Notes: generated by a model from the letters alone, not told the origin. DNA of 12,549 nt from a virus (IMGVR_UViG_2541047926_000005:1-12549); one strand, 5' to 3'. Positions 1 to 12,549 are shown, counted from the stretch's first letter. Made by a program: numbers and translations.

Positions 1-1284
1 TTACTTCTTCGCCTCTGCAACCACTTTACTACCCACGCCGCGGTTATTGTATTCCCACATGCGGTTGTAGTTAGTGTCATTCAGATTGCGCTGTATTTCG
101 TCGTTATCATCTACGCTGCCGGTATTACCCGCAAACGGACGATTAGAGATCACCGCATCGGCCCACGGTTTAGCCGTGTTAAAACCTTCGTTGATGGCGC
201 TATCACGGATCACCACCTGACCGTTGGTATTGGCATCAACATCCAGCGAGCGGCCCAGTTGCGCCACACCATCACCGAAAGCATTGAAACGGCTGTTTAC
301 GGCGAGGAAACCGTAGTAAATGTTGGACAGCGTAGCCGGTGCAAACACATACGCTTCTTGCTGAGTACGTGAGTTCACCACGCGGAATTCGGTGTTATCG
401 AACACCACTGCGCCGCGACCAGAAACGATATCCACATCCCCTTCAATGTAGCTGTTGGTCACCAGCGTACGCGGCTGACGATTCGTTTCCAGACGGTTCT
501 GCACACCGCTGTTGGTGACAAAGAAGGTGTTCTGACGACCGAGAATGTTAACGTTGTTAATCTGTACCTGGTCACCATCAGTACGCAGTGCCACCGCCGG
601 ATGGTTACCTGCATCTACGCTATCGCCCAGCGTGTTTTCGATGGTCAGATTTTGCAGTTGCAGGCCATTGTTTTGTGACCAGAAGACCGCAGAGCAGAGA
701 ACACCGATACTGTCGCTGCGTTTGCTCTGGCAGCTATCGTACATATACCACGCTGGTTTACCTGGCATATATTTGCCGCGCGGGTTGACGTCGTGACGCC
801 AGTCGGCAGGGCTCATGCCACCATCAAGGGAAAGCCCAATCTTCACATCAATCGGTTTTTCACCTGTACCGTACAGAGTAATTCCACCCGGAGCGGCAGG
901 GACATATACCGTTCCCTGATACTCACCAGGCATCACGGCAATATACTGGCGCTTGTTGGTACGCTTGATAATTGCCGCATCTACCGCCGCCTGAATCGTG
1001 GTATGCGTTACACCTTGAGTGCCCGCCGGGCCGACAACAAAGTCAGGTTGCGCAGGCAGGGTAATCGGGGAAGGATTCCACGCTGCAGCACCTGGTGTCA
1101 GGGATGCAAAATAGTGTTGAGCATCGAAATTCTGCGCTTCTTTTGCCGACAGAATCGGGCGAGAAGAGGTACCAGGCGCGGTTTGATCAGAAGGACGTTG
1201 ATCGGGCGGGGTTGAGCTACAGGCGGTCAGCGTCACGCCAAAAGCCAATGCCAGCGCCAGACGGGAAACTGAAAATGTGTTCAC
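1..1284 (-). CDS. ybhC: YbhC-like outer-membrane lipoprotein (pectinesterase/CE8 beta-helix fold, putative acyl-CoA thioesterase)
   Basis: Complete 427-aa ORF; GTG start at 1284 with GGAG about 7 nt upstream; N-terminal signal peptide ending in lipobox LTAC; AVALRTDGD and DIVSG motifs typical of pectinesterase fold; lies directly outside the lambda att core, as ybhC does at attB(lambda) in E. coli. Confidence 0.8.
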   Translation of the reverse strand: MNTFSVSRLALALAFGVTLTACSSTPPDQRPSDQTAPGTSSRPILSAKEAQNFDAQHYFASLTPGAAAWNPSPITLPAQPDFVVGPAGTQGVTHTTIQAAVDAAIIKRTNKRQYIAVMPGEYQGTVYVPAAPGGITLYGTGEKPIDVKIGLSLDGGMSPADWRHDVNPRGKYMPGKPAWYMYDSCQSKRSDSIGVLCSAVFWSQNNGLQLQNLTIENTLGDSVDAGNHPAVALRTDGDQVQINNVNILGRQNTFFVTNSGVQNRLETNRQPRTLVTNSYIEGDVDIVSGRGAVVFDNTEFRVVNSRTQQEAYVFAPATLSNIYYGFLAVNSRFNAFGDGVAQLGRSLDVDANTNGQVVIRDSAINEGFNTAKPWADAVISNRPFAGNTGSVDDNDEIQRNLNDTNYNRMWEYNNRGVGSKVVAEAKK

Positions 1285-1321
1285 AGGTTGCTCCGGGCTA
1301 TGAAATAGAAAAATGAATCCG

Positions 1322-1421
1322 TTGAAGCCTGCTTTTTTATACTAAGTTGGCATTATAAAAAAGCATTGCTTATCAATTTGTTGCAACGAACAGGTCACTA
1401 TCAGTCAAAATAAAATCATTA
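1322..1421. other. attL (B-O-P') junction of a lambda-type integration: 15-bp core 1331-1345, IHF H'-like site 1371-1383, Int arm-type sites about 1392-1411
   Basis: Exact core GCTTTTTTATACTAA; left flank TGAAGCCT matches the bacterial B arm; right flank GTTGGCATTATAAAAAAGCATTGCTTATCAATTTGTTGCAACGAACAGGTCACTATCAGTCAAAAT matches the phage P' arm, with TATCAATTTGTTG (IHF consensus WATCAANNNNTTR) and tandem AGGTCACTAT / CAGTCAAAAT arm-type repeats. Confidence 0.85.
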
Positions 1422-2489
1422 TTTGATTTCAATTTTGTCCCACTCCCTGCCTCTGTCATCACGATACTGTGATGCCATGGTGTCCGACTTATGCCCGAGA
1501 AGATGTTGAGCAAACTTATCGCTTATCTGCTTCTCATAGAGTCTTGCAGACAAACTGCGCAACTCGTGAAAGGTAGGCGGATCCCCTTCGAAGGAAAGAC
1601 CTGATGCTTTTCGTGCGCGCATAAAATACCTTGATACTGTGCCGGATGAAAGCGGTTCGCGACGAGTAGATGCAATTATGGTTTCTCCGCCAAGAATCTC
1701 TTTGCATTTATCAAGTGTTTCCTTCATTGATATTCCGAGAGCATCAACATGCAATGCTGTTGGGATGGCAATTTTTACGCCTGTTTTGCTTTGCTCGACA
1801 TAAAGATATCCATCTACGATATCAGACCACTTCATTTCGCATAAATCACCAACTCGTTGCCCGGTAACAACAGCCAGTTCCATTGCAAGTCTGAGCCAAC
1901 ATGGTGATGATTCTGCTGCTTGATAAATTTTCAGGTATTCGTCAGCCGTAAGTCTTGATCTCCTTACCTCTGATTTTGCTGCGCGAGTGGCAGCGACAGG
2001 GTTTGTTGTTATATGGCCTTCAGCTATTGCCTCTCGGAATGCATCGCTCAGTGTTGATCTGATTAACTTGGCTGACGCCGCCTTGCCCTCGTCTATGTAT
2101 CCATTGAGCATTGCCGCAATTTCTTTTGTGGTGATGTCTTCAAGTGGAGCATCAGGCAGACCCCTCCTTATTGCTTTAATTTTGCTCATGTAATTTATGA
2201 GTGTCTTCTGCTTGATTCCTCTGCTGGCCAGGATTTTTTCGTAGCGATCAAGCCATGAATGTAACGTAACGGAATTATCACTGTTGATTCTCGCTGTCAG
2301 AGGCTTGTGTTTGTGTCCTGAAAATAACTCAATGTTGGCCTGTATAGCTTCAGTGATTGCGATTCGCCTGTCTCGGCCTAATCCAAACTCTTTACCCGTC
2401 CTTGGGTCCCTGTAGCAGTAATATCCATTGTTTCTTATATAAAGGTTAGGGGGTAAATCCCGGCGCTCATGACTTCGCCTTCTTCCCAT
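1419..2489 (-). CDS. int: Lambda-type integrase (tyrosine recombinase)
   Basis: 356-aa ORF beginning MGRRRSHERRDLPPNLYIRNNGYYCYRDPRTGKEF, recognised as lambda Int; catalytic region HELRSLSARLY ... HLLGHKSDTMASQYRDDRG present; 3' end abuts the P' arm; 23-nt overlap with xis as in lambda. Confidence 0.95.
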   Translation of the reverse strand: MGRRRSHERRDLPPNLYIRNNGYYCYRDPRTGKEFGLGRDRRIAITEAIQANIELFSGHKHKPLTARINSDNSVTLHSWLDRYEKILASRGIKQKTLINYMSKIKAIRRGLPDAPLEDITTKEIAAMLNGYIDEGKAASAKLIRSTLSDAFREAIAEGHITTNPVAATRAAKSEVRRSRLTADEYLKIYQAAESSPCWLRLAMELAVVTGQRVGDLCEMKWSDIVDGYLYVEQSKTGVKIAIPTALHVDALGISMKETLDKCKEILGGETIIASTRREPLSSGTVSRYFMRARKASGLSFEGDPPTFHELRSLSARLYEKQISDKFAQHLLGHKSDTMASQYRDDRGREWDKIEIK

Positions 2490-2685
2490 TTCTGATCCTC
2501 TTCAAAAGGCTACCTGTTACTGGTCGATTTAAGTCAACCTTTACCGCTGATTCGTGGAACAGATATTCTCTTCCATCCTTAACCGGAGGAGGGAATATCC
2601 TGCATTCGCGCACCCATCGACGAACTGTTTCAAGGCTTCTTGGGCGTCGCTGGCGAGCGTTCCACTCCTGAAGTGTCAAGTACAT
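2467..2685 (-). CDS. xis: Excisionase
   Basis: 72-aa ORF MYLTLQEWNARQRRPRSLETVRRWVRECRIFPPPVKDGREYLFHESAVKVDLNRPVTGSLLKRIRNGKKAKS, recognised as lambda Xis; overlaps the int start. Confidence 0.9.
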   Translation of the reverse strand: MYLTLQEWNARQRRPRSLETVRRWVRECRIFPPPVKDGREYLFHESAVKVDLNRPVTGSLLKRIRNGKKAKS

Positions 2686-2711
2686 CGCAAAGTCTCCGCA
2701 ATTACACGCAA
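2665..2711 (-). promoter_or_regulatory. pI-like CII-dependent promoter (TTGC-N6-TTGC at 2698-2711 on minus strand)
   Basis: Minus-strand TTGCGTGTAATTGC lies just upstream of the xis ATG, so the predicted transcript start falls inside xis; this matches lambda pI, which yields Int without Xis. No clear -10 hexamer, as expected for an activator-dependent promoter. Confidence 0.5.
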
Positions 2712-2712
2712 G

Positions 2713-2733
2713 AAAAAACCGCCATCAGGCGGC
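2713..2733 (-). terminator. Intrinsic terminator-like hairpin (stem CCGCC/GGCGG, loop 4 nt) followed by U6 on minus strand
   Basis: Plus strand AAAAAACCGCCATCAGGCGG; the minus-strand RNA would be GCCGCC-UGAU-GGCGG-UUUUUU. Confidence 0.4.
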
Positions 2734-2902
2734 TTGGTGTTCTTTCAGTTCTTCAATTCGAATATTGGTTACGTCTGCATGTGCTATCTGCGCCCACAGC
2801 ATCCAGTGGTTATAGCAGTCGCTGATGTTCTCGGCTTCGATAACTCTGTTGAATGGTTCTCCATTCCATTCACCTGTAACTCGGAAGTGCATTTATCATC
2901 GC

Positions 2903-2930
2903 CATAAAACAAAACTCGCCGTAGCGAGTT
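2903..2930 (-). terminator. Intrinsic terminator-like hairpin (7-bp stem AACTCGC/GCGAGTT, loop CGTA) with U-rich tail on minus strand
   Basis: Perfect 7-bp inverted repeat at 2913-2930; minus-strand downstream sequence is UUGUUUUAUGG. Confidence 0.45.
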
Positions 2931-2932
2931 CA

Positions 2933-2961
2933 GATAAAAGAAAACCCGCACTCGGCGGGTT
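2933..2961 (-). terminator. Intrinsic terminator-like hairpin (7-bp stem AACCCGC/GCGGGTT, loop 5 nt) with U-rich tail on minus strand
   Basis: Perfect 7-bp inverted repeat at 2943-2961; minus-strand downstream sequence is UUUUCUUUUAU; tandem with the preceding hairpin. Confidence 0.5.
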
Positions 2962-3240
2962 CGCATTCGTTCAAATTGCGTTTACTTCTTGGCGTTCTGT
3001 TCATCCATATCGATATACCATGGGTTGCTTCCCTTGGGCATGTTTAACGACTGCTCGCGATAGTATCTGATGCGCTCCATGAAATACTCGCGTGAGTGCT
3101 CAGGTTGCTCTCATGATACCTGCTCAGTGATAACAGGTATGTTAAGGCGCTCTCTGTACTCCATGCCTGATGCTGCAAGGTCAACGTTTACCTTGTTCTG
3201 TTTTTCTTTCGATTTCTCGGCGATGTTATGCCTGACATTG

Positions 3241-3525
3241 TCAACCCGCCTCCTTCTGAACATAACGGTTATAAATCAGTCCCTGAGGGCCATAAGGAAG
3301 CGGGATGTGCAACTCCTCTGGTTCAGAAACTATCCATTCCCCGGCCATCTCCGCTGGAGAGGTAATGATAAGTTGTTTGCTAATAAAAGGACCACTCCTC
3401 TCAACAACAAGCTTACCATCTTCATTAATAAAAGCTTGGATGTCAGGTGTGCTTCCACACTTGGTGATGCAGCGTTTGAACATTTTGTGTCCCCCCATTT
3501 TATGGACGGGGTAATTATAACACAT
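3241..3525 (-). CDS. Small hypothetical protein with N-terminal Cys/His cluster, in the ea8.5 position of lambda (Ea8.5-like, tentative)
   Basis: 94-aa ORF (lambda ea8.5 is 93 aa by recollection); N-terminus MCYNYPVHKMGGHKMFKRCITKCG has H-x4-H-x5-C-x3-C spacing; no SD at 3525. Alternative start at 3483 has a purine-rich GGGGGGA upstream. Follows an 84-bp AT-rich spacer. Confidence 0.5.
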   Translation of the reverse strand: MCYNYPVHKMGGHKMFKRCITKCGSTPDIQAFINEDGKLVVERSGPFISKQLIITSPAEMAGEWIVSEPEELHIPLPYGPQGLIYNRYVQKEAG

Positions 3526-3609
3526 TGAAATATAGTAATATTTGACGTAGATTTCTTTTGATCTATAAGCGATTTTTTAATGCTTTTAAGTTATAAATAC
3601 TTGTTTTCA

Positions 3610-4185
3610 TCACCCATCTTGCTGCGGTGCTACTATTGAAAAGTACTCACACCCTTTAGCCCAAATAGTTTTGATAGTTGTCCAACTGACTGGAACCTTG
3701 ATTTCGATTCTTCCGCTGCCGTCACAAGTTTCGCAATCATCATCACCAAAGCATTCCGGGCAGCTTATAAACGTAGTTTCTGAAAATTCACCGGATAGCA
3801 CACCCTTAGCGCCGTTCTCAGCGGTTAGTTTCTTCGGCACTATAACCCAACCATCCGGAGTTACCGGAGAATTGCCATTTATATCGAAGTTTGGCTCTGC
3901 GTCCTGAACCAGGAGGATGTAACCATTCTTGGCAGTATCAAGTTCTAACGCCTCGGTGACGGTACCGAAATAGCGATTACCTAAATCCGCATCACAAGTG
4001 CTTACATCAATGGAAACCTCCATGCCTTCGATTAATTCTGGCAAGTTGTAAGTTTGGCTTACAGGTTCTGCTCCCAGTGATGCCAGTGCAATTCGTGCCA
4101 GTTCCATTTGTTCGCCACGAGTAAGCCCGTTTTCAAGCGGATTTTTAATGAACAATTCAATACGTTCTTTGGTAATAGTGGTCAT
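3610..4185 (-). CDS. Hypothetical protein with C-terminal DnaJ-type zinc-finger motif (CxxCxG ... CxxCxGxG)
   Basis: 191-aa ORF; SD AAGGA 7 nt upstream of ATG 4185; only 10 nt downstream of the preceding gene's stop; C-terminal CPECFGDDDCETCDGSG. Confidence 0.7.
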   Translation of the reverse strand: MTTITKERIELFIKNPLENGLTRGEQMELARIALASLGAEPVSQTYNLPELIEGMEVSIDVSTCDADLGNRYFGTVTEALELDTAKNGYILLVQDAEPNFDINGNSPVTPDGWVIVPKKLTAENGAKGVLSGEFSETTFISCPECFGDDDCETCDGSGRIEIKVPVSWTTIKTIWAKGCEYFSIVAPQQDG

Positions 4186-4195
4186 TTGTTAGTCC

Positions 4196-5056
4196 TTAAA
4201 CTGCTAGTTGCAATTGCATTTCAAAGCGGTCGCGTTGTTCACAATACGCAAGAGAACCAGGGCTATTGTGTGCCTCAATCCGTTCTACCATTAATGCTGC
4301 GCGTGTCTCTTTACTTGCAGGTGCATAAGCCCCAGACCAGGCTTTATCAATACCGATGTTTCGAGCGACGTTCGTACTATCTGCGCTGGCTAAGGGTAAT
4401 TTTGTGAATATCAGCGGATTTAACATGCGCAATCCATGTAGTTTCGTAACCGGCTGACCATGCCCATCAACAATGTGACGAATCAGGTCTTTCATTCTGG
4501 CTACCGCAAGAGTTGGGCGCTTTACGTCATAGTCGCCACAACTACCGATAGCCACTCGCGGAAACTCATTGCACAAATGAATAAATCGCTCGTCACTTTC
4601 ATTCATGTGCCACACTGGAACGCCAGCTAGTTTTCCGTGAGCCCGGACTTCAGCCAGGAAAGCATCGGTGGCTGGGGTGTCAACACGGATGCTGTCGCGC
4701 AAGATGAAAAATGCATTGAGCATTCCAGTCTCTGGCACTTCATCCTGATGCTTCTCATACGCATCAAGAGCCTTCATCATCTCATGTCCGAATGGTTGAG
4801 GGTGCTCAGCCTTCAGCCCAGCATTCTCCGCCGCCAGCGCTGAAAACTTCTCGTGTGCCAACTTAACAGCCGAATCAGCCTGCTTAATTGACTCAATCGC
4901 TTTCTGGTGGTCTTCGTACAGAGCCGAAATCTTGGCCTCCGCTTCAGCAAATTTACGCACCAGATATTCAGCGTTTGTTTCGTTAACCTTTAAATCTCGT
5001 GGGAAGCATTTACCTTTCAGAAAACCATCCATCTCAATTAGTGACATTTGTTTCAT
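4196..5056 (-). CDS. Hypothetical protein: N-terminal coiled-coil-like region plus C-terminal globular domain
   Basis: 286-aa ORF; ATG 5056 overlaps the upstream stop (ATGA); GGAG upstream; helical heptad-like N-terminus ([30 protein letters not shown]); C-terminal motifs AIGSCGDYD and LHGLRMLNP, unrecognised. Confidence 0.7.
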
Positions 5057-5217
5057 TTCTTCCCACTCCGCAACATTGCATTCAGATATTTGTTGTCATT
5101 AACAGAACCGAAACTCTTTCTCTTAAGCAATTCCTCTCTCGATGGCATTGGCTTTACGCGTTGGCGAATAATCATTTCTGCCGGAAGAATGCTGGGATTG
5201 TATGCAAGTCCTCTCAT
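5053..5217 (-). CDS. Small hypothetical protein (about 54 aa), translationally coupled to both neighbours
   Basis: ATG at 5217 with SD GAGGAA 6 nt upstream (alternative ATG at 5235 overlaps the upstream TGA); its stop TGA overlaps the ATG of the 286-aa gene (ATGA). Confidence 0.4.
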
Positions 5218-5227
5218 GGTAAATTCC

Positions 5228-5524
5228 TCAGTCATTACTGATAGCGCCATAGCGTGAGCGGTAATTACGCAGGCGCGGGTCGATATATTCAGGGAAGTGG
5301 GTATATGTGGCTTTGCGGAATGGTCGGATTGATGTCTGGTAAATTCGCTCGCGTTCTTCTTTCTCTGCAAGCCATATACAGTGGCGAAATTCCTTTTCCT
5401 CTTTCGTTTCCTGCGGTAGCGACATTATCAGGTCGTAGTTTTTCCTGAATTTATCCAGCACCTCCGATACGGAATTGCCGGAACAGCGGCGCGCGTCATC
5501 CGCACCATACAGAGGCGCTGGCAT
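5228..5524 (-). CDS. Hypothetical 98-aa protein immediately downstream of the erf/ssb module
   Basis: SD AAGGA about 8 nt upstream of ATG 5524; begins 24 nt after the ssb stop. Confidence 0.65.
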
Positions 5525-5547
5525 AATGGAATCCTTATTTTGCTAAT

Positions 5548-5931
5548 TTAGAAGGGAATTGAATCGTCGTATTCAGGATGGTTTTGATGATTGCTACTTT
5601 GTTGCTGTTGGCTGTTTCCTGAAGTTGCAAATCCAATCTTTGCATTCAGTAATTCAAGAGTGATTGATTGACCATTTTGCCCCTGATAAACATCAACCCT
5701 GATGTTTTCTCCGGTAATTTCCACAATGCCACCTTCAACAAGAACACTACGGTAGTAATCCGCTTGCGCTCCCGGCTTGGCAAATACAACGGCGCTGTAG
5801 TTTGTCCATTCTTTCTTTTTTGTCTGGCGATCGTAATACTGAACGCCAGCACGGATGTTGAATCCGATATTTTCCCCGGCCTGAAACTCTCTTGCGGGCT
5901 TGTTTAGTCTTACAGTAATCGAATGTGCCAT
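5548..5931 (-). CDS. ssb: Phage single-stranded DNA-binding protein (SSB-like)
   Basis: 127-aa product from ATG 5931 (TAATG overlap with the erf stop); OB-fold-like core (SAVVFAKPGAQADYYRSVLVEGGIVEITG), Gln/Ser-rich linker, and acidic C-terminal tip DDSIPF matching the SSB tail consensus DDDIPF. The ORF-track N-terminal extension to 6021 overlaps erf and is rejected. Confidence 0.7.
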   Translation of the reverse strand: MAHSITVRLNKPAREFQAGENIGFNIRAGVQYYDRQTKKKEWTNYSAVVFAKPGAQADYYRSVLVEGGIVEITGENIRVDVYQGQNGQSITLELLNAKIGFATSGNSQQQQSSNHQNHPEYDDSIPF

Positions 5932-6536
5932 TAAGCAGCCGCTCCTTCTAATTCGTCTCGTCTGATGTTGTAAACGTCCTGCGCTTTGTGCTGCTCCGGT
6001 GTTCCTTCGAGCATCTTCCACGCTTTGGCGAACGCCTGTTTAAGCTCTTCCACGGTGTTTTTCTGCATTGCTGCGTCAGTGAATGCTTTTAGAACCTGTT
6101 CAGGTGTAGGTGATGGTTTTGATTGCTTTGCTACTGCGTTCTGCTGATGTTTATGCTCGTCTGTATCTGCATCTTTCGCATCATCAATGCCGAACAAACT
6201 ATTGAGGCAATACTTGCGTGCATAAGAGCTTGTAGCTCCCGTAACTTGTGCAGAATCCATTCCTTTCTTGCTTTCTTCCTCTCGTGCAAGAGCGGTTGCC
6301 GTATGACTGTTTTCGCCATCGGTAATAGTTGCCGTGGCTTTCACGTAATACCGATCACCAATCAACACAACTTCATCGCTGATTGATAAAAACAGGCCAT
6401 TCAGTAACGGCTTAACGCCTTCAAGAATATCTTCGCAGCTTCTGTATTTATATTTACCGAATGAGTTGTACTGATTTTTTGGCGCGTTCAGATTCTCCTG
6501 AATAGCTGCCAGTCTTGCGTAAAATTCTTTGCTCAT
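5931..6536 (-). CDS. erf: Erf-family single-strand annealing recombinase
   Basis: 201-aa product from ATG 6536 (MSKEFYARLAAIQENLNAPKNQYNSFGKYKYRSCEDILEG ... GATSSYARKYCLNSLFGIDD), recognised as close to P22 Erf; the start at 6536 leaves a 10-nt gap to the upstream small ORF, whereas the 6566 start would overlap it. Confidence 0.85.
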   Translation of the reverse strand: MSKEFYARLAAIQENLNAPKNQYNSFGKYKYRSCEDILEGVKPLLNGLFLSISDEVVLIGDRYYVKATATITDGENSHTATALAREEESKKGMDSAQVTGATSSYARKYCLNSLFGIDDAKDADTDEHKHQQNAVAKQSKPSPTPEQVLKAFTDAAMQKNTVEELKQAFAKAWKMLEGTPEQHKAQDVYNIRRDELEGAAA

Positions 6537-6546
6537 ATGTTTGTTC

Positions 6547-6716
6547 TCAGAATGGACATGGCCCAAGGAAATAACGCTGGTTTAATACTTCGACTCGGGA
6601 CAAATTAAGGCATACCCGCATTCCTTCGCGGTCACCATTATGGCGATACCAGAGAGCTTTCTGCGTGTACATGCGTCTCTGTAACTTGCTCTCCTTCACT
6701 GTGGTTGCAAGTGACA
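6547..6716 (-). CDS. Small hypothetical protein (56 aa) upstream of erf (arf-position ORF)
   Basis: Strong SD AAGGAG 6 nt upstream of ATG 6716; ends 10 nt before the erf start; overlaps an alternative 52-aa frame (6640-6796) that is ATGA-coupled to the kil stop. Confidence 0.4.
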
Positions 6717-6792
6717 TGAATATCTCCTTCGTTACCGATTAAATCTTTCATCTGACGAATGAATTCTTCGTCTGACCAGTTATCTGTAAAAC

Positions 6793-6945
6793 TCATTTCC
6801 TGCGATACCACGGAAGGTTGATAGCTGATTTCATCGCTTTATTTGCTTCAAGCCACATTTTGGAATCACCAATAAATCTGGCTATTACTGCTTTGTTTTG
6901 TGCTGCACGAAGCATCTGGTGATTGATGGTTATTTCATTGCGCAT
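6793..6945 (-). CDS. kil: Kil-like small protein (host-killing / cell-division inhibitor family, tentative)
   Basis: Unlisted 54-aa ORF MRNEITINHQMLRAAQNKAVIARFIGDSKMWLEANKAMKSAINLPWYRRK; SD GGAGG 5 nt upstream; start overlaps the 3' end of cIII as kil does in lambda; central FIGD-KM motif resembles lambda Kil as I recall it. Confidence 0.55.
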   Translation of the reverse strand: MRNEITINHQMLRAAQNKAVIARFIGDSKMWLEANKAMKSAINLPWYRRK

Positions 6946-7064
6946 AACGCCTCCAGTTGTTTCTTTGCTGCTCTGATTAATTGTTTAACTCGGCGTGATA
7001 ATTCAGATTCGAGCGGGTAGAAAGCGGACATGACGCCGCTACCCGCGAGCTGAAAGTGCATCAT
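6930..7064 (-). CDS. cIII: CIII-like protein (FtsH inhibitor that stabilises CII)
   Basis: 44-aa product MMHFQLAGSGVMSAFYPLESELSRRVKQLIRAAKKQLEALCAMK from ATG 7064 with SD AAGGAG 6 nt upstream; amphipathic core ESELSRRVKQLIRAAKKQLEAL parallels the lambda CIII core ESLLERITRKLRDGWKRLIDIL; the ORF-track 61-aa version has a spurious N-terminal extension. Confidence 0.75.
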   Translation of the reverse strand: MMHFQLAGSGVMSAFYPLESELSRRVKQLIRAAKKQLEALCAMK

Positions 7065-8149: not shown

Positions 8150-8177
8150 CCAAAAATAAAGGCCGACTATGCGGCCT
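8150..8177 (-). terminator. Intrinsic terminator (stem AGGCCG/CGGCCT, 6-nt loop) plus UUUAUUUUU on minus strand, overlapping the stop codon of the 207-aa gene
   Basis: Plus strand CAAAAATAAAGGCCGACTATGCGGCCT; hairpin and U-tract fall immediately 3' of the 8167-8790 gene. Confidence 0.55.
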
Positions 8178-8790
8178 CGGAAGGAAGTCCAATCATCTTA
8201 TTCAAATCTTCTACCCGTAAAGCAGGAAGTGCTGTACTTGCTTTATCTGCTTCTTTTGGTAGCAACTCTTTGCTTTCAGGCCAAACCTCAATAAGTCGCT
8301 TAACTGTTGTGACTGAGTTTAAAGCAGCCCATACATTTGATTCGATATCCTTTTTCTTGGCTTCAAGTTTTTGTTGTAATGAGCAGATTTCATCAAACCT
8401 TTTTGTTATTTCGTGCTCTGCGTCAAACATGCATTTATCTTTTATCGGAGTAGGGAGAAATATATCTTCGCCGTTGCCGTCTTTCCCATATGAATGCCAT
8501 CCAACCCTTCTGCCAGATACAGTCAGATAAATTGAAGTAGAACGAAAATCGTATGAGTAAAATGAACATCCCATCTTGCCAAGTTCTTCACTTATAGCTA
8601 CCAACTTGGATGATAACTGATCCACTTCCTCAGTTTTCTTTTTACCGCCAAACGCAATAACTCTGGCGTCAAGTGCAAGCTGGTTCTTTAACTTTGTTAC
8701 TTCTTCAAGCTCAGTGAAAACCCCAGACTTAATTAAAGCGTTACGAGCGATTTTCTCTTTCATTCTCGTAGTTAAGCGGATTGATGACAT
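8167..8790 (-). CDS. Hypothetical soluble 207-aa protein with its own terminator (accessory gene in the ral/sieB region)
   Basis: ATG at 8790 with SD GAGAGG 7 nt upstream (ORF-track start at 8805 is a TTG inside the SD); charged coiled-coil-like termini; no TM segments; family not recognised. Confidence 0.7.
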   Translation of the reverse strand: MSSIRLTTRMKEKIARNALIKSGVFTELEEVTKLKNQLALDARVIAFGGKKKTEEVDQLSSKLVAISEELGKMGCSFYSYDFRSTSIYLTVSGRRVGWHSYGKDGNGEDIFLPTPIKDKCMFDAEHEITKRFDEICSLQQKLEAKKKDIESNVWAALNSVTTVKRLIEVWPESKELLPKEADKASTALPALRVEDLNKMIGLPSEAA

Positions 8791-8847
8791 ATTAATTCCT
8801 CTCAAATAAGTGGTTTGCTGCGAAAGTAAATACGCTTAAGTTACCTG

Positions 8848-9171: not shown

Positions 9172-9534
9172 TTATTTTGTCAGGGGGATATCTCCTTCAG
9201 TTCTGACCATTCGCCTTAATACTTTCCTTAAGTCGATGTAAAGTTGAAGGTCTCCATTTGCTGCGGCATCAGCCATTTTTTGCCTGACAAGCAGTAATGT
9301 TTCATACGGCTCAATAAGAATATCGTCATGAGTAATTAGGTGAAGCGTTGCCGCATCAACTATTCCTAGAGCTGCGCCAAGTATCAAAAATTCCCTGCTA
9401 TTTTTGTCGCATGAGGAGATAAGCGTATTTAGCGCATACCTAATATTCTTTATAGCTGTTGTTAATGCTGCAATTTCTTCTATGGCGTCTTCTTCAATGA
9501 GATTTTTAAGCTCATATTTTTCTTCCTGACCCAT
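9172..9534 (-). CDS. Hypothetical 120-aa protein, first leftward gene after the organisational break
   Basis: ATG 9534 with SD GAGGT about 5 nt upstream; the ORF-track extension to 9618 lacks an SD and has a different composition; no Arg-rich motif, so not an N-like antiterminator. Confidence 0.6.
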   Translation of the reverse strand: MGQEEKYELKNLIEEDAIEEIAALTTAIKNIRYALNTLISSCDKNSREFLILGAALGIVDAATLHLITHDDILIEPYETLLLVRQKMADAAANGDLQLYIDLRKVLRRMVRTEGDIPLTK

Positions 9535-9569
9535 AATTACCTCGCCGTCAGTTGTTTTGATTTCCGGTA

Positions 9570-9601
9570 GCCTGCCGCGTAAATGGCTACATTTGGCAGG
9601 C
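9570..9601. promoter_or_regulatory. Nested inverted repeat GCCTGCC-n18-GGCAGGC (inner AAATG/CATTT) in the divergent intergenic region; candidate operator or RNA structure
   Basis: Perfect 7-bp arms at 9570-9576 and 9595-9601; overlaps a weak sigma70-like promoter for the plus-strand gene (TTGATT 9557-9562, 17-nt spacer, TAAATG 9580-9585). Confidence 0.3.
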
Positions 9602-9647
9602 AAACACTTCCACTGCATTCATCAACTTTCTTGCAGCGAAGGCTAAT

Positions 9648-11123
9648 GTGCTGAAGTATGACCCTGATCAGTTACGACAGGATTTGTCTTCACAGGGCGG
9701 CGTAAACTTAGTTAATGGTGCCGTTAGTTATGATAATCTGGGTAGTGAATACGGGCTGAATCTCATAGGTGAATATGCCGAAATATCAAATTTACGGGAT
9801 GTAGCACCATCTGTAGGTGATAAGGTCATGGTGAAGGAGCACACCACAGGACGTGGTTTGTTAGGTGGTGGTGTTTTCGTAGCTGTATCAGGGAATTACA
9901 CAGATGATGATGGAGTATTTATTTCGTCTGCTTCCCCATCTGTATATTGGGTACGAAGTGGCGCAGGTAGTCATGTTATAATTGAATGGTTCGGTGGCAA
10001 ATCTGAAGATCAGAGTTTAGATCATTCTCCTATCCTGGCTAACGCACAGTTATATGAAGGTCGATCGATAGAGTTTCAGTACGGAAGCTACTACTTTACA
10101 CCTCCATGCGTCATCAAGCCGTCTATGCATTTCATCGGCAGCGGTGGCGCTAAAACATTCTGGCGAAACAAAAATATAAATGCGGACGCCACGGTGTTCT
10201 TCGCCAACACCGGGAGTGCATCTTCTTGGGCTGAAAATACAGTGTTCGAGCGCATTCATTTTAGTAATGACTCCAGCTCTACCCCCAGCAATGCGGCTAT
10301 ATCACTGCAACATGCGAGTCTATTTAAATTTGATAAGTGCGGTTTTTACAAGGCACCGATTTACGCATCAGATTTACACTGGGTTACTTGGAATGGCTGC
10401 GTATTAATCGACAGTATGACCACAATTAACGAGGCCAGTGTATCACCAGCATTTCCTATTAACGAGGGTCCAGCATTTATCGACTGCTATATGGTCAGAT
10501 CCCCTATAGATATAACTGATGTTGCCGATTTGAGACTAGTAGGCACTTCGATGTTTTACGGACCTTACGGCATAAAGTCAACGACACACCGACCTTTAGA
10601 TTCAGGGGCGGATTCTCGGGGATTACCGGTATTTATAACTAATAGCGTAATTGACAATATTGACGGTTATTGCTTGGACCTTAACAGAGTGGCGGTAGGA
10701 ACTATCACAAACAGCCTGTTCTCTGGAGGAAGAGTGTCAGGGACTCCAGCAATACGTGCAACAGAGGTTTTGGGACTTAGCTTTAACGCCAATGTTATCC
10801 ATTTCGCCGGTCAGGAATGCATGTACCTCTATGACGTGCAGAATATATTAATGGGTAATAACCAATTCAGTAGTTGCAACGGTTATGCAATAAAAGCAGA
10901 ATATTGTCGTAATGTTACTGTGAATGGTAATTTCTTCGGTAACCAGAAAGTCACTGGCGGATGGAATACATGCACTGGAGGGATAAACTTTAACACCAAC
11001 GATAACCTTGCATGGATAATAACTGGCAACACTTTCGTAAGTGTACCCGGAGTTGTAGGGCAGACAGGGTCTGGAAGAACAGTTTATACTGCCACAGGTA
11101 ATTCAGGTTTGTCAGATAATTAA
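9648..11123 (+). CDS. Tailspike-like right-handed beta-helix protein lacking a head-binding domain (putative polysaccharide-degrading or -binding)
   Basis: 491-aa ORF with GTG start at 9648 (SD GAAGG 5 nt upstream); N-terminus LKYDPDQ matches the conserved junction motif of P22-family tailspikes as I recall it, and the upstream in-frame codons read A-N-V; body has beta-helix-like repeats (NVTVNGNFF, NILMGNNQF, LSFNANVIH, ITNSLFSGG); no signal peptide. Confidence 0.75.
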   Translation: MLKYDPDQLRQDLSSQGGVNLVNGAVSYDNLGSEYGLNLIGEYAEISNLRDVAPSVGDKVMVKEHTTGRGLLGGGVFVAVSGNYTDDDGVFISSASPSVYWVRSGAGSHVIIEWFGGKSEDQSLDHSPILANAQLYEGRSIEFQYGSYYFTPPCVIKPSMHFIGSGGAKTFWRNKNINADATVFFANTGSASSWAENTVFERIHFSNDSSSTPSNAAISLQHASLFKFDKCGFYKAPIYASDLHWVTWNGCVLIDSMTTINEASVSPAFPINEGPAFIDCYMVRSPIDITDVADLRLVGTSMFYGPYGIKSTTHRPLDSGADSRGLPVFITNSVIDNIDGYCLDLNRVAVGTITNSLFSGGRVSGTPAIRATEVLGLSFNANVIHFAGQECMYLYDVQNILMGNNQFSSCNGYAIKAEYCRNVTVNGNFFGNQKVTGGWNTCTGGINFNTNDNLAWIITGNTFVSVPGVVGQTGSGRTVYTATGNSGLSDN

Positions 11124-11196: not shown

Positions 11197-12549
11197 TTAA
11201 GCTCTCTTTATTAGAACTGGAGATATAATGATGATTGGTAGTGCTTTTACCAGATAAACCAGCGGGAGAACTAACTCAGCTCTACATGAAAAAATGAATC
11301 CTGGTAAAATGGCCATTGCAGATACAATAAGCATCTTATTTCCTGATGACAGCAACTTATTTATCAATAGAATAATTGACAATGAATACGCTATCATTAC
11401 CATTGGCCCAAATGCACCGCCAAGAATCATGGATTCAAGCGGAAGTGATGATGATAAAGCTATTCCAGATGAATGACTGCCAAGGGCAATATCCGTATAT
11501 ACTTGCGATATCGGCGTGACACCGTTTATATTAAATCCAAGCAGGTTAAAGAATTGTAATATAATATCTTCCTGATTAAAATTGTGGGAATACCAAAAGT
11601 CAGATATATTGAAAGTACTTTGCAACCCAGATATTATTGATGCTATAGAATCAAGAACAATTAGTAAATAGCTAAAGAAATACATGTTGTATCCTTCTCT
11701 ATAATATGAAACCAAAGAAAGTACAACAAATAGAGATGATATTACTACAGGGCTTGTTATTTTTCTGAAGTATTTCTTTGCATTATTTATATCAACAAAC
11801 ATCATTATTATAAAAATTGAAATCAAGGAAGAAAAAGCCTTCCCTCTAATGCCTATAATTATGTCTGAGAACAATATGAATATTGCAATTGCTGTAATTA
11901 TCTTACTCCTTGAAAAGGCTATAGCCATGAGCGATAAAATTACTGAAAACCCACTTAAGAACCTTATTGCGAAAGGCACTGACGACACAAGATCGTCGTT
12001 TGATAGATATATTGCAAGATGCCCAAGACCTGAATTTGATATGAATGAGTAATATGTGTATATTTTATATAGTTGAGCTATCGCTACAAACAAAAATATA
12101 AATACAAAAAAATTACTTAGCCTTAGATTAATTAAAGGATTTGTTTTTGTTTGTCTGAATGACTTTCCAAGAAAGTAAATAACCATAGATGAAAGAACGA
12201 TGCATAGCATCATTCCTTTAAATGCAGGAGTGGAGTCGTTTACCATAAACAAATAACAGGCAGGTATTCCAAGAAGTAATGAATAACAAAAGAAATATAT
12301 AGTTCCAATAGATAATTCATTCATTCTTTTTATATACGATAACACCAAGCATGAAGTATACAGTGGAGCGATAAAACAAAACAATATATCATATACACCT
12401 GATTGAACCCCAGATATCATTAGCAATGATATAAATACGATTATAGACAGTAGAGCAAACATAAGAAATATATACGGCAATGTATTAACTATCTGGTTTG
12501 GAGTCCATATATAACCAGTGTTACTGCCTGAAATGTATTTTCTAATCAT
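11197..12549 (-). CDS. Polytopic inner-membrane protein, GtrC/Wzy-like (candidate O-antigen modifying enzyme: serotype-specific glycosyltransferase or O-antigen polymerase)
   Basis: 450-aa ORF with many hydrophobic helices; markedly AT-rich codon usage unlike the rest of the window; starts at the last base of the window (ATG 12549-12547), so the true start may lie beyond; convergent with the tailspike-like gene. Confidence 0.75.
   Translation of the reverse strand: MIRKYISGSNTGYIWTPNQIVNTLPYIFLMFALLSIIVFISLLMISGVQSGVYDILFCFIAPLYTSCLVLSYIKRMNELSIGTIYFFCYSLLLGIPACYLFMVNDSTPAFKGMMLCIVLSSMVIYFLGKSFRQTKTNPLINLRLSNFFVFIFLFVAIAQLYKIYTYYSFISNSGLGHLAIYLSNDDLVSSVPFAIRFLSGFSVILSLMAIAFSRSKIITAIAIFILFSDIIIGIRGKAFSSLISIFIIMMFVDINNAKKYFRKITSPVVISSLFVVLSLVSYYREGYNMYFFSYLLIVLDSIASIISGLQSTFNISDFWYSHNFNQEDIILQFFNLLGFNINGVTPISQVYTDIALGSHSSGIALSSSLPLESMILGGAFGPMVMIAYSLSIILLINKLLSSGNKMLIVSAMAILPGFIFSCRAELVLPLVYLVKALPIIIISPVLIKRA

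Follow-up and report, generated by a model that had tools for sequence, protein, structure and literature searches.

An in-frame chimera of a coiled-coil gene and half of a DpdA-like gene in a defective Escherichia coli prophage

A 286-codon open reading frame (ORF) in a prophage of Escherichia coli is an in-frame hybrid that arose when illegitimate recombination joined two phage backbones. Its N-terminal 139 residues are the front part of a prophage coiled-coil family, and its remaining residues come from a gene whose full-length product appears, on profile and structural comparison, to be a singleton DpdA-like DNA-guanine transglycosylase homologue. We consider it likely that the ORF is a recent and neutral scar of phage mosaicism, an inactive by-product rather than a working protein.

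Two phage backbones joined within one reading frame

The window, that is the whole stretch of DNA analysed, comprises 12,549 nucleotides. Within it, the hybrid and its immediate surroundings are laid out as follows.

4196-5056, minus strand: the whole chimeric ORF, 286 aa plus stop, with an ATG start and its stop codon at 4196-4198
4640-5056, minus strand: N-module, aa 1-139, the front of a 186-189-aa prophage coiled-coil family (phrog_614)
4811-4975, minus strand: heptad-repeat (coiled-coil) segment, aa 28-82, from a heptad test against shuffles and a long AlphaFold helix
4640-4641, no strand: recombination joint, a 2-nt 'CT' microhomology common to both parents, between codons 139 (GCT) and 140 (CAC)
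4199-4639, minus strand: C-module, aa 140-286, corresponding to residues 105-251 of a 251-aa singleton-DpdA-like protein and to its strands 5-8
5053-5217, minus strand: upstream DUF2737 gene (Pfam PF10930, E 2.7e-29), also present among the gene calls of identical contigs

An initial annotation of this DNA had proposed a 286-aa ORF at 4196-5056, and this is borne out on the minus strand with an ATG start. The start codon overlaps the stop of the DUF2737 gene (ATGA), and 10 nt separate the stop of the chimera from the start of the next gene. The same protein is already present in the databases as an E. coli 'hypothetical protein' (WP_021567296.1 / EQY66542.1). We observed in passing that WP_021567296.1 sits within a protein cluster represented by a 136-aa sequence.

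Among PHROG profiles, aa 1-141 are matched by phrog_614, of unknown function (E 4e-49). Residues 1-139 are 99% identical to the 188-aa protein P0007 through ...AFLAEVRA; thereafter the two diverge, P0007 continuing as QGVEMYADN...QLRKGGNQ. Indeed, relatives within the coiled-coil family have aa 1-139 in common and then, from exactly the same position, carry at least five unrelated C-terminal segments (P0007, P0016, P0022, P0033 and the E189 protein). The 'EaE' gene of the P22-like Salmonella phage SF3 is 50.7% identical over aa 1-141, and annotators have sometimes given the family the names 'ead/Ea22-like' or 'EaE'.

The N-terminal part had been described as helical with heptad-like spacing, and approximately eight unbroken heptads are found at aa 28-82. 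Here, 82-88% of the a/d positions are hydrophobic, a value reached by 0-3 of 2000 shuffles; by the same shuffle test, heptad periodicity is absent at aa 88-139. A single-sequence AlphaFold model, run on the 285-aa Met-less protein and hence with numbering that is off by 1, predicts a single unbroken helix at aa ~26-84 (pLDDT 60-83), the rest of the model being unreliable and the C-half not folded (pLDDT <50). The N-module of the chimera is intact, with a short head, a coiled coil of ~55 residues and a linker; the C-terminal part of the coiled-coil family, together with its conserved ...QLRKGGNQ tail, is missing.

In a base-by-base comparison, the first parent matches through nucleotide 417 of the ORF and the second from nucleotide 416, with no wider DNA homology. 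Using blastn, positions 1-4641 of the window are 99.957% identical to the ybhC-side prophage of E. coli FORC064 (L001), the alignment ending at the joint, and positions 4641-6947 are 97.4% identical to a P22-like arm carrying P0007 (L007), that alignment beginning at the joint. This is the same point at which members of the coiled-coil family switch C-terminal domains (after ...AEVRA), and in a full-length model it coincides almost exactly with the division of the DpdA-like barrel into halves. A simple deletion of ~460 bp between adjacent genes of one ancestor was rejected, since the flanks match different prophages; it is this difference at the joint that leads us to prefer recombination between two backbones over a single-ancestor deletion, while allowing that later recombination may have replaced one flank. 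No full-length homologues conserved around aa 139/140 were found among E. coli genomes, phage records or protein relatives.

Mosaicism of lambdoid phages is described by the non-homologous recombination model of Hendrix, Juhala and colleagues, and most surviving lambdoid mosaic joints fall at gene boundaries. The joint described here resembles such joints in its abrupt switch of backbone, its 2-nt microhomology and its placement in a non-essential accessory region; it differs from them in lying inside two genes and in producing an in-frame fusion. As a separate observation, the arrangement of the two genes side by side does exist in nature, P0097 being a 415-aa read-through of a full-length coiled-coil gene and a full-length dpdA-like gene.

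The host prophage and its lineage

The chimera is carried by a defective prophage remnant that occupies the lambda attachment site. The window starts in ybhC, followed by a lambda-type integrase (1419-2489) and an excisionase (2467-2685). The chimera is located between int/xis (1419-2685) and abc2, erf and an SSB-like gene (5228-6566), all on the same strand; the co-oriented accessory run comprises abc2 (anti-RecBCD), the SSB-like gene, erf, DUF2528, Nmad5 and a remnant of the antiterminator N. The genomic slot to which the initial annotation referred is the early-left accessory (exo-xis / ea) region, bounded here by xis on one side and the recombination genes on the other. Two features mark the far end of the prophage.

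9172-9644, minus strand: remnant of the antiterminator N region, from comparison with the E. coli E9 prophage and a match to phrog_7374
9648-11123, plus strand: tailspike gene without its N-terminal ~105 profile positions (phrog_7173, E 1.5e-185, profile positions 106-626 of 626)

Similarity to intact prophages ends at ~9641-9644, within the N-peptide gene, and the direct joining of the N gene to a 5'-truncated tailspike gene constitutes a large prophage deletion. Missing are pL, the immunity region, the replication and lysis genes and nearly all morphogenesis genes. No convincing promoter was found upstream of the chimera, where terminator-like sites are present. With pL and N lost, expression of the chimera is probably weak. 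PADLOC returned no defence-system match, and neither preQ0-synthesis genes nor dpdB were found near the chimera.

At least 80% of the ORF in one place was found in none of 5426 complete E. coli genomes and in no phage record, each half being common. The junction 23-mer likewise had no match in GTDB species representatives, IMG/VR or JGI metagenomes. Across NCBI, ENA and Logan assemblies, the chimera is encoded on at least eight contigs. The window itself is 100% identical to E. coli scaffold KE702177.1 (GCA_000461015.1), and five retrieved loci are 99.97-100% identical to it over up to 12.5 kb, all with the same large deletion. Near-identical contigs bearing the same deletion therefore indicate one near-clonal E. 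coli lineage and no recurrence. The C-module DNA is 99.8% identical over 449 nt to the WP_000582234.1 genes of many E. coli prophages; with 1 of 449 nt separating the C-half from its parental allele, the fusion is too young to show either selection or decay in its sequence.

A DpdA-like half-barrel

The initial annotation had distinguished a C-terminal unit of ~170 residues that it could not recognise. A distinct unit is indeed present, although the unit of homology amounts to 147 residues (aa 140-286), and it is recognisable as the C-terminal half of a DpdA-like protein through phrog_887 and through hhalign comparison with the DpdA of phage 9g. The PHROG profile phrog_887, 'queuine tRNA-ribosyltransferase', matches aa 116-283 of the chimera (E 1.4e-53) and the full-length protein P0002 (E 3e-101). 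That the former alignment begins at aa 116 is explained by a weak resemblance of aa 117-139 to the segment they replaced. BLASTP and HMM alignments extend back to aa 64 or 116 with almost no identity there; because these upstream extensions are near-identity-free and the DNA is without homology in the same region, we set the start of true homology at aa 140. From this residue on, the chimera is near-identical to BTP1_023 (SIU02687, 251 aa) of Salmonella virus BTP1.

Both SIU02687 of BTP1 and YP_004782407 of Salmonella phage 7-11 have been listed as DpdA, among singletons from gamma-proteobacterial phages, the term 'singleton' denoting a phage that encodes DpdA without the preQ0 pathway (Hutinet 2019, PMC6884629). 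The 251-aa family is homologous to the 7-11 protein (35% identity, E 3e-31 by BLASTP). A profile of 51 family members aligned by hhalign with the validated phage 9g DpdA at a probability of 98.4% (E 4.9e-15), pairing LDNGAF with LDSGAF, KLHGLR with KVHGFG and SADST with SCDSS. Furthermore, Foldseek searches of BFVD with the parent family returned phage 'queuine tRNA-ribosyltransferases' at E 1e-6 to 1e-4, and a full-length model of the 251-aa family takes the form of a TGT-like TIM barrel. An exhaustive profile search widened the family to 1360 representative clusters (E<=1e-3), whose members are typically 240-260 aa long. These sequence and model comparisons identify the parent of the C-module as a putative singleton DpdA-like DNA-guanine transglycosylase homologue.

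When the ORF and the two parental families were scanned against Pfam, NCBIfam and PADLOC, nothing significant emerged; for the ORF, Pfam listed Taxilin alone (E 0.09), and PDB sequence searches with two family profiles gave spurious matches only. Nor did the family profile match E. coli Tgt in hhalign or TGT in Pfam. However, Pfam also misses the experimentally validated 9g DpdA, and for that reason the silence of Pfam, NCBIfam, PADLOC and PDB cannot be held against a relationship to TGT. The family is linked to the TGT superfamily via phage DpdA1 and via structure.

Two motifs that the initial annotation had picked out in this region, AIGSCGDYD and LHGLRMLNP, are read directly from the sequence where it had them, and they are listed here with a third site of the C-module.

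4526-4552, minus strand: motif AIGSCGDYD, aa 169-177, equivalent to family residues 134-142 in strand 6 and the following loop
4415-4441, minus strand: motif LHGLRMLNP, aa 206-214, containing His207, equivalent to family-invariant H172, the conserved DpdA histidine
4379-4381, minus strand: Asp226, equivalent to family-invariant D191 (SADST), the putative nucleophile, retained and aligned with 'sCDSs' of 9g DpdA

The first of these motifs aligns with 'yitlGGlvG' of 9g DpdA, and R132, V133, G136, S137 and G139 are invariant among close relatives of the 251-aa family. The second, which corresponds to the strand bearing the conserved histidine, aligns with 'kvHGfg'. D47, H172, D191 and S192 do not vary across 51 diverse family members, and D87 hardly does. 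In the DpdA of Salmonella Montevideo (bDpdA), D95A and D256A each abolish guanine exchange and His181 contacts the base (PMC10164549); a conserved histidine of DpdA has also been cited at position 196 (Hutinet 2019, PMC6884629). In terms of bDpdA, D47 would correspond to Asp95 (general acid/base), H172 to His181 and D191 to Asp256 (nucleophile), equivalences that rest on the 9g DpdA alignment and the literature rather than on a direct alignment with bDpdA. The base-recognising Asp130 of bDpdA would be represented by D87/D90, within IPDVID (residues 85-90), D90 being the residue paired in the 9g alignment.

In parental numbering, the full-length model assigns the strands at residues 2-3, 23-27, 43-47 and 80-84 to the lost part and those at residues 110-114, 133-135, 169-171 and ~189-191 to the part that is kept. 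The chimera does not contain a complete (beta/alpha)8 TIM barrel, having strands 5-8 only. It lacks D47 (LDNGAF) and D87/D90 (after strand 4), both of which lie upstream of residue 105, and retains the conserved His207 and the nucleophile-type Asp226. With neither the acid/base Asp nor strands 1-4, the half-barrel alone should be unable to catalyse transglycosylation, be it exchange of guanine or of 7-deazaguanine.

The chimera shares with singleton DpdA proteins its aa 140-286, the histidine of LHGLR, the aspartate of SADST and a genomic place among the ea genes of lambdoid and P22-like prophages; unlike them, it is without the N-terminal 104 residues (strands 1-4, with HxHGGP, LDNGAF and IPDVID), in place of which it has a coiled coil. 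Singletons themselves are without demonstrated activity, the DNA of phage 7-11 containing ~50 dADG per 10^6 nt and that of phage Orion none (PMC6884629). Validated DpdA/TGT enzymes (9g DpdA1; bDpdA, PDB 7ui4) resemble the parental family in their TIM-barrel fold and Asp/His/Asp active-site pattern, but measure 317-413 aa as against 251 aa, and the chimera has the half-barrel only.

Origin of the fusion and its possible roles

In the reading that we favor, the gene is a neutral scar with the following origin. Positions 1-4641 of the window come from an E. coli prophage of the FORC064 type, integrated at lambda attB, and run from ybhC, int and xis to the 3' part of a dpdA-like gene. Positions 4641-~9644 come from a P22-like early-left arm with an N remnant, Nmad5, Erf, SSB-like, Abc2, DUF2737 and the 5' part of a coiled-coil gene. 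The crossover occurred inside both genes at the 2-nt microhomology, in frame by chance, and its product is the N-module joined to strands 5-8 of a TIM barrel with the TGT fold, presumably catalytically incomplete.

The dpdA-like gene is often broken in prophages. Frameshifted forms (P0006, P0053, P0103 and P0119) occur, as does an internally deleted one (P0071). It also occurs in other fusions to Ea22-like N-termini, at residue ~47 (P0136) and at residue ~100 (P0050) of the dpdA-like protein. In P0050, which is known from a single 1048-bp contig of one run, a Pfam Ead_Ea22 N-terminus is joined at ...LLEWPHGK, no more than 5 residues from the dpdA-like break point of the chimera.

Several observations count against a scar. 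The ORF is uninterrupted, reads in frame and remains coupled in translation to the neighbouring genes; the fusion could be structurally tolerated, the joint falling at both a module and a half-barrel boundary; and P0050 is an independent fusion near the same break. Half TIM barrels of other families, such as the HisF halves, fold and dimerise.

The alternative that fares best is a working accessory protein of the Ea22 or EaE type, in which the N-module still oligomerises and the DpdA piece is one more swapped C-terminal domain; we regard this as unlikely. [quoted passage not shown] The initial annotation had tentatively suggested this layout. The short N-terminal segment and long coiled coil are present as it supposed; the C-terminal part is a fragment of an unrelated fold and no Ea22 CTD. 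Position and general architecture likewise agree with an Ea22 assignment, but the CTD does not, and homology is unproven. The search for Ead_Ea22 (PF13935) gave no match either to the ORF or to its intact relative P0007, P0050 serving as a positive control (E 8.7e-08), and lambda Ea22 (182 aa) gave no BLASTP alignment with the ORF at E<=100. A match of the CTD to an unrelated enzyme family, which the initial annotation had itself named as speaking against its suggestion, was found in the DpdA/TGT-like family.

Swapping of C-terminal segments at exactly the joint of the chimera nevertheless lends this alternative some force, as do the intact coiled coil and the retained slot and translational coupling. 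The CTDs of lambda and Stx-phage Ea22 proteins differ from each other as well (PMC10834534). The N-module and lambda Ea22 each match the mosaic family phrog_368, in regions of the profile that are not the same and overlap only in part; P0026, which is intact and close to identical to the N-module, carries the NCBI name 'ead/Ea22-like family protein'; and the ...QLRKGGNQ tail of intact relatives resembles the ...GIRIKGE tail of Ea22. The likeness to lambda Ea22 thus comprises the early-left slot and a short head with a coiled coil, to which the intact relatives of the N-module add a ...(L/I)R(K/I)(G/K)G tail and phrog_368. The differences are the lack of pairwise similarity, an unrelated CTD, the lost tail and the absence from the chimera of the N-terminal 'ALREAAEKA' signature. 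Against a working protein of this type, moreover, stand a new C-terminal piece that is half a barrel and no autonomous domain, and the confinement of the chimera to one near-clonal lineage, in a prophage for which the choice between lysis and lysogeny no longer arises.

A further alternative is a newly functional fusion, in which the coiled coil gathers two or four half-barrels into a pseudo-barrel or the chimera poisons the DpdA of incoming phages. We think this very improbable. Its outcome, for which we hold out as little expectation, would be a DNA- or base-binding protein, or one that acts as a dominant negative against 7-deazaguanine DNA modification. The break at the half-barrel boundary, the retention of His207 and Asp226 and the independent fusion of P0050 at nearly the same residue would all be in keeping with such a role. 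The role is pure inference, however, and P0050 is that single short contig; other fusions break elsewhere (P0136, at residue 47) and this, together with frameshift decay, fits random damage. The C-half was unfolded in the single-sequence model, PADLOC gave no matches, and pL, the normal driver of the gene, has been lost from the prophage. That the fusion is no accident, its oligomerised half-barrel forming a dead pseudo-barrel which binds DNA or 7-deazaguanine bases or poisons the DpdA of superinfecting phages, we would credit scarcely at all.

Finally, an assembly or sequencing artefact joining two prophage regions would accord with a microhomology of only 2 nt and with a joint present in no complete E. 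coli genome, but is hardly conceivable given that the same protein and DNA recur in two NCBI genomes, one ENA metagenome assembly and several Logan runs, on contigs of up to 3.58 Mb.

The locus is, then, an ordinary mosaic scar. The families involved are already known, and it is the architecture of the fusion that is new, though probably accidental. As a scar, it offers a clean, datable mosaic joint inside two genes, with an in-frame fusion. The C-terminal domain, which had seemed unplaceable, is accounted for by a published family, the singleton DpdA-like transglycosylase homologues that temperate enterobacterial phages encode. Sequence searches of Pfam, NCBIfam, PADLOC and PDB miss this family, and database records of the chimera still say 'hypothetical'. 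A functional chimera would be unusual as a half-barrel protein occurring in nature, although nothing that we found requires a function; and if poisoning were true, a prophage remnant would strip invaders of their anti-restriction DNA modification by a new route. More generally, the frequent breakage of the dpdA-like gene bears on the question of selection for singletons in lysogens.

Resemblance across the chimera joint

A weak resemblance to the replaced part of the DpdA-like parent extends into the coiled-coil N-module of the chimera, where window 4640-4708 (aa 117-139) can be set against residues 82-104 of the parental DpdA. Over its final 23 residues the N-module reads F.IL.D.I.......DAFL.E, compared with FAIIPDVIDGGEEENDALLNE in the segment that was replaced, and HMM and BLAST alignments therefore overrun the true joint by approximately 24 or more residues. 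Since the DNA of window 4640-4708 has no homology to the replaced dpdA-like segment, this likeness is probably due to chance.

Damaged and fused dpdA-like derivatives

Public data hold many broken or fused forms of the 251-aa dpdA-like gene, and the following proteins are its derivatives:
P0050
P0136
P0097
P0071
P0006
P0053
P0103
P0119

Besides the chimera there are two Ea22-like::DpdA fusions, and the breakpoint of one, P0050, falls no more than five residues from the chimera joint. In more distant lineages, as seen in proteins P0176 and P0193, unrelated N-termini precede the DpdA-like domain, which runs from about profile position 75 onward. The N-terminal sequence of P0176 looks like a histidine phosphatase, and both proteins may be real fusions or assembly chimeras.

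Genes downstream of the chimera

Two features lie downstream of the chimera:
3610-4185, minus strand: 191-aa gene directly downstream, matching phrog_60 (unknown function)
~2982-3263, minus strand: HolE/Hot-like homologue of DNA polymerase III theta, broken by an internal stop

The product of the 191-aa gene contains CPECFGDDDCETCDGSG, which as a sequence pattern resembles a CxxC...CxxC zinc-binding motif. In E. coli FORC064, the annotation directly downstream of the dpdA-like gene offers merely a 138-nt pseudogene fragment in place of this gene, despite the DNA there being 99.96% identical to the window. The theta homologue is likewise annotated as a pseudogene in the identical region of FORC064, and a 50-aa fragment on contig L016 matches Pfam DNA_pol3_theta.

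Early-left arm and tailspike side

Three further features lie towards the other end:
8167-8805, minus strand: Nmad5 gene, 212 aa, full-length Pfam Nmad5 match (E 6.7e-71)
~9641-9648: large prophage deletion joint, where the N-peptide gene abuts the tailspike ORF
11197-12549, minus strand: highly hydrophobic multi-pass membrane protein, 450 aa or longer

Nmad5 denotes 'nucleotide modification associated domain 5', and its gene shares the early-left arm with the DpdA-derived fragment. Because three related prophages (L007, L008 and L012) carry Nmad5 without a dpdA-like gene, no strict linkage between the two is apparent.

The antiterminator N-peptide gene is broken at ~9644 and directly adjoined by the tailspike ORF, which has a GTG start and lacks ~105 profile positions at its N-terminal end. 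This prophage has no pL promoter or immunity region, and its replication, lysis and head/tail genes are all missing. Adjoining the tailspike, the membrane-protein gene occupies a segment of ~30% GC and extends past the window edge, making 450 aa its minimum length. Searches of Pfam, NCBIfam and PADLOC returned no match for its product; its position suggests a candidate phage-borne O-antigen polymerase or modification gene.
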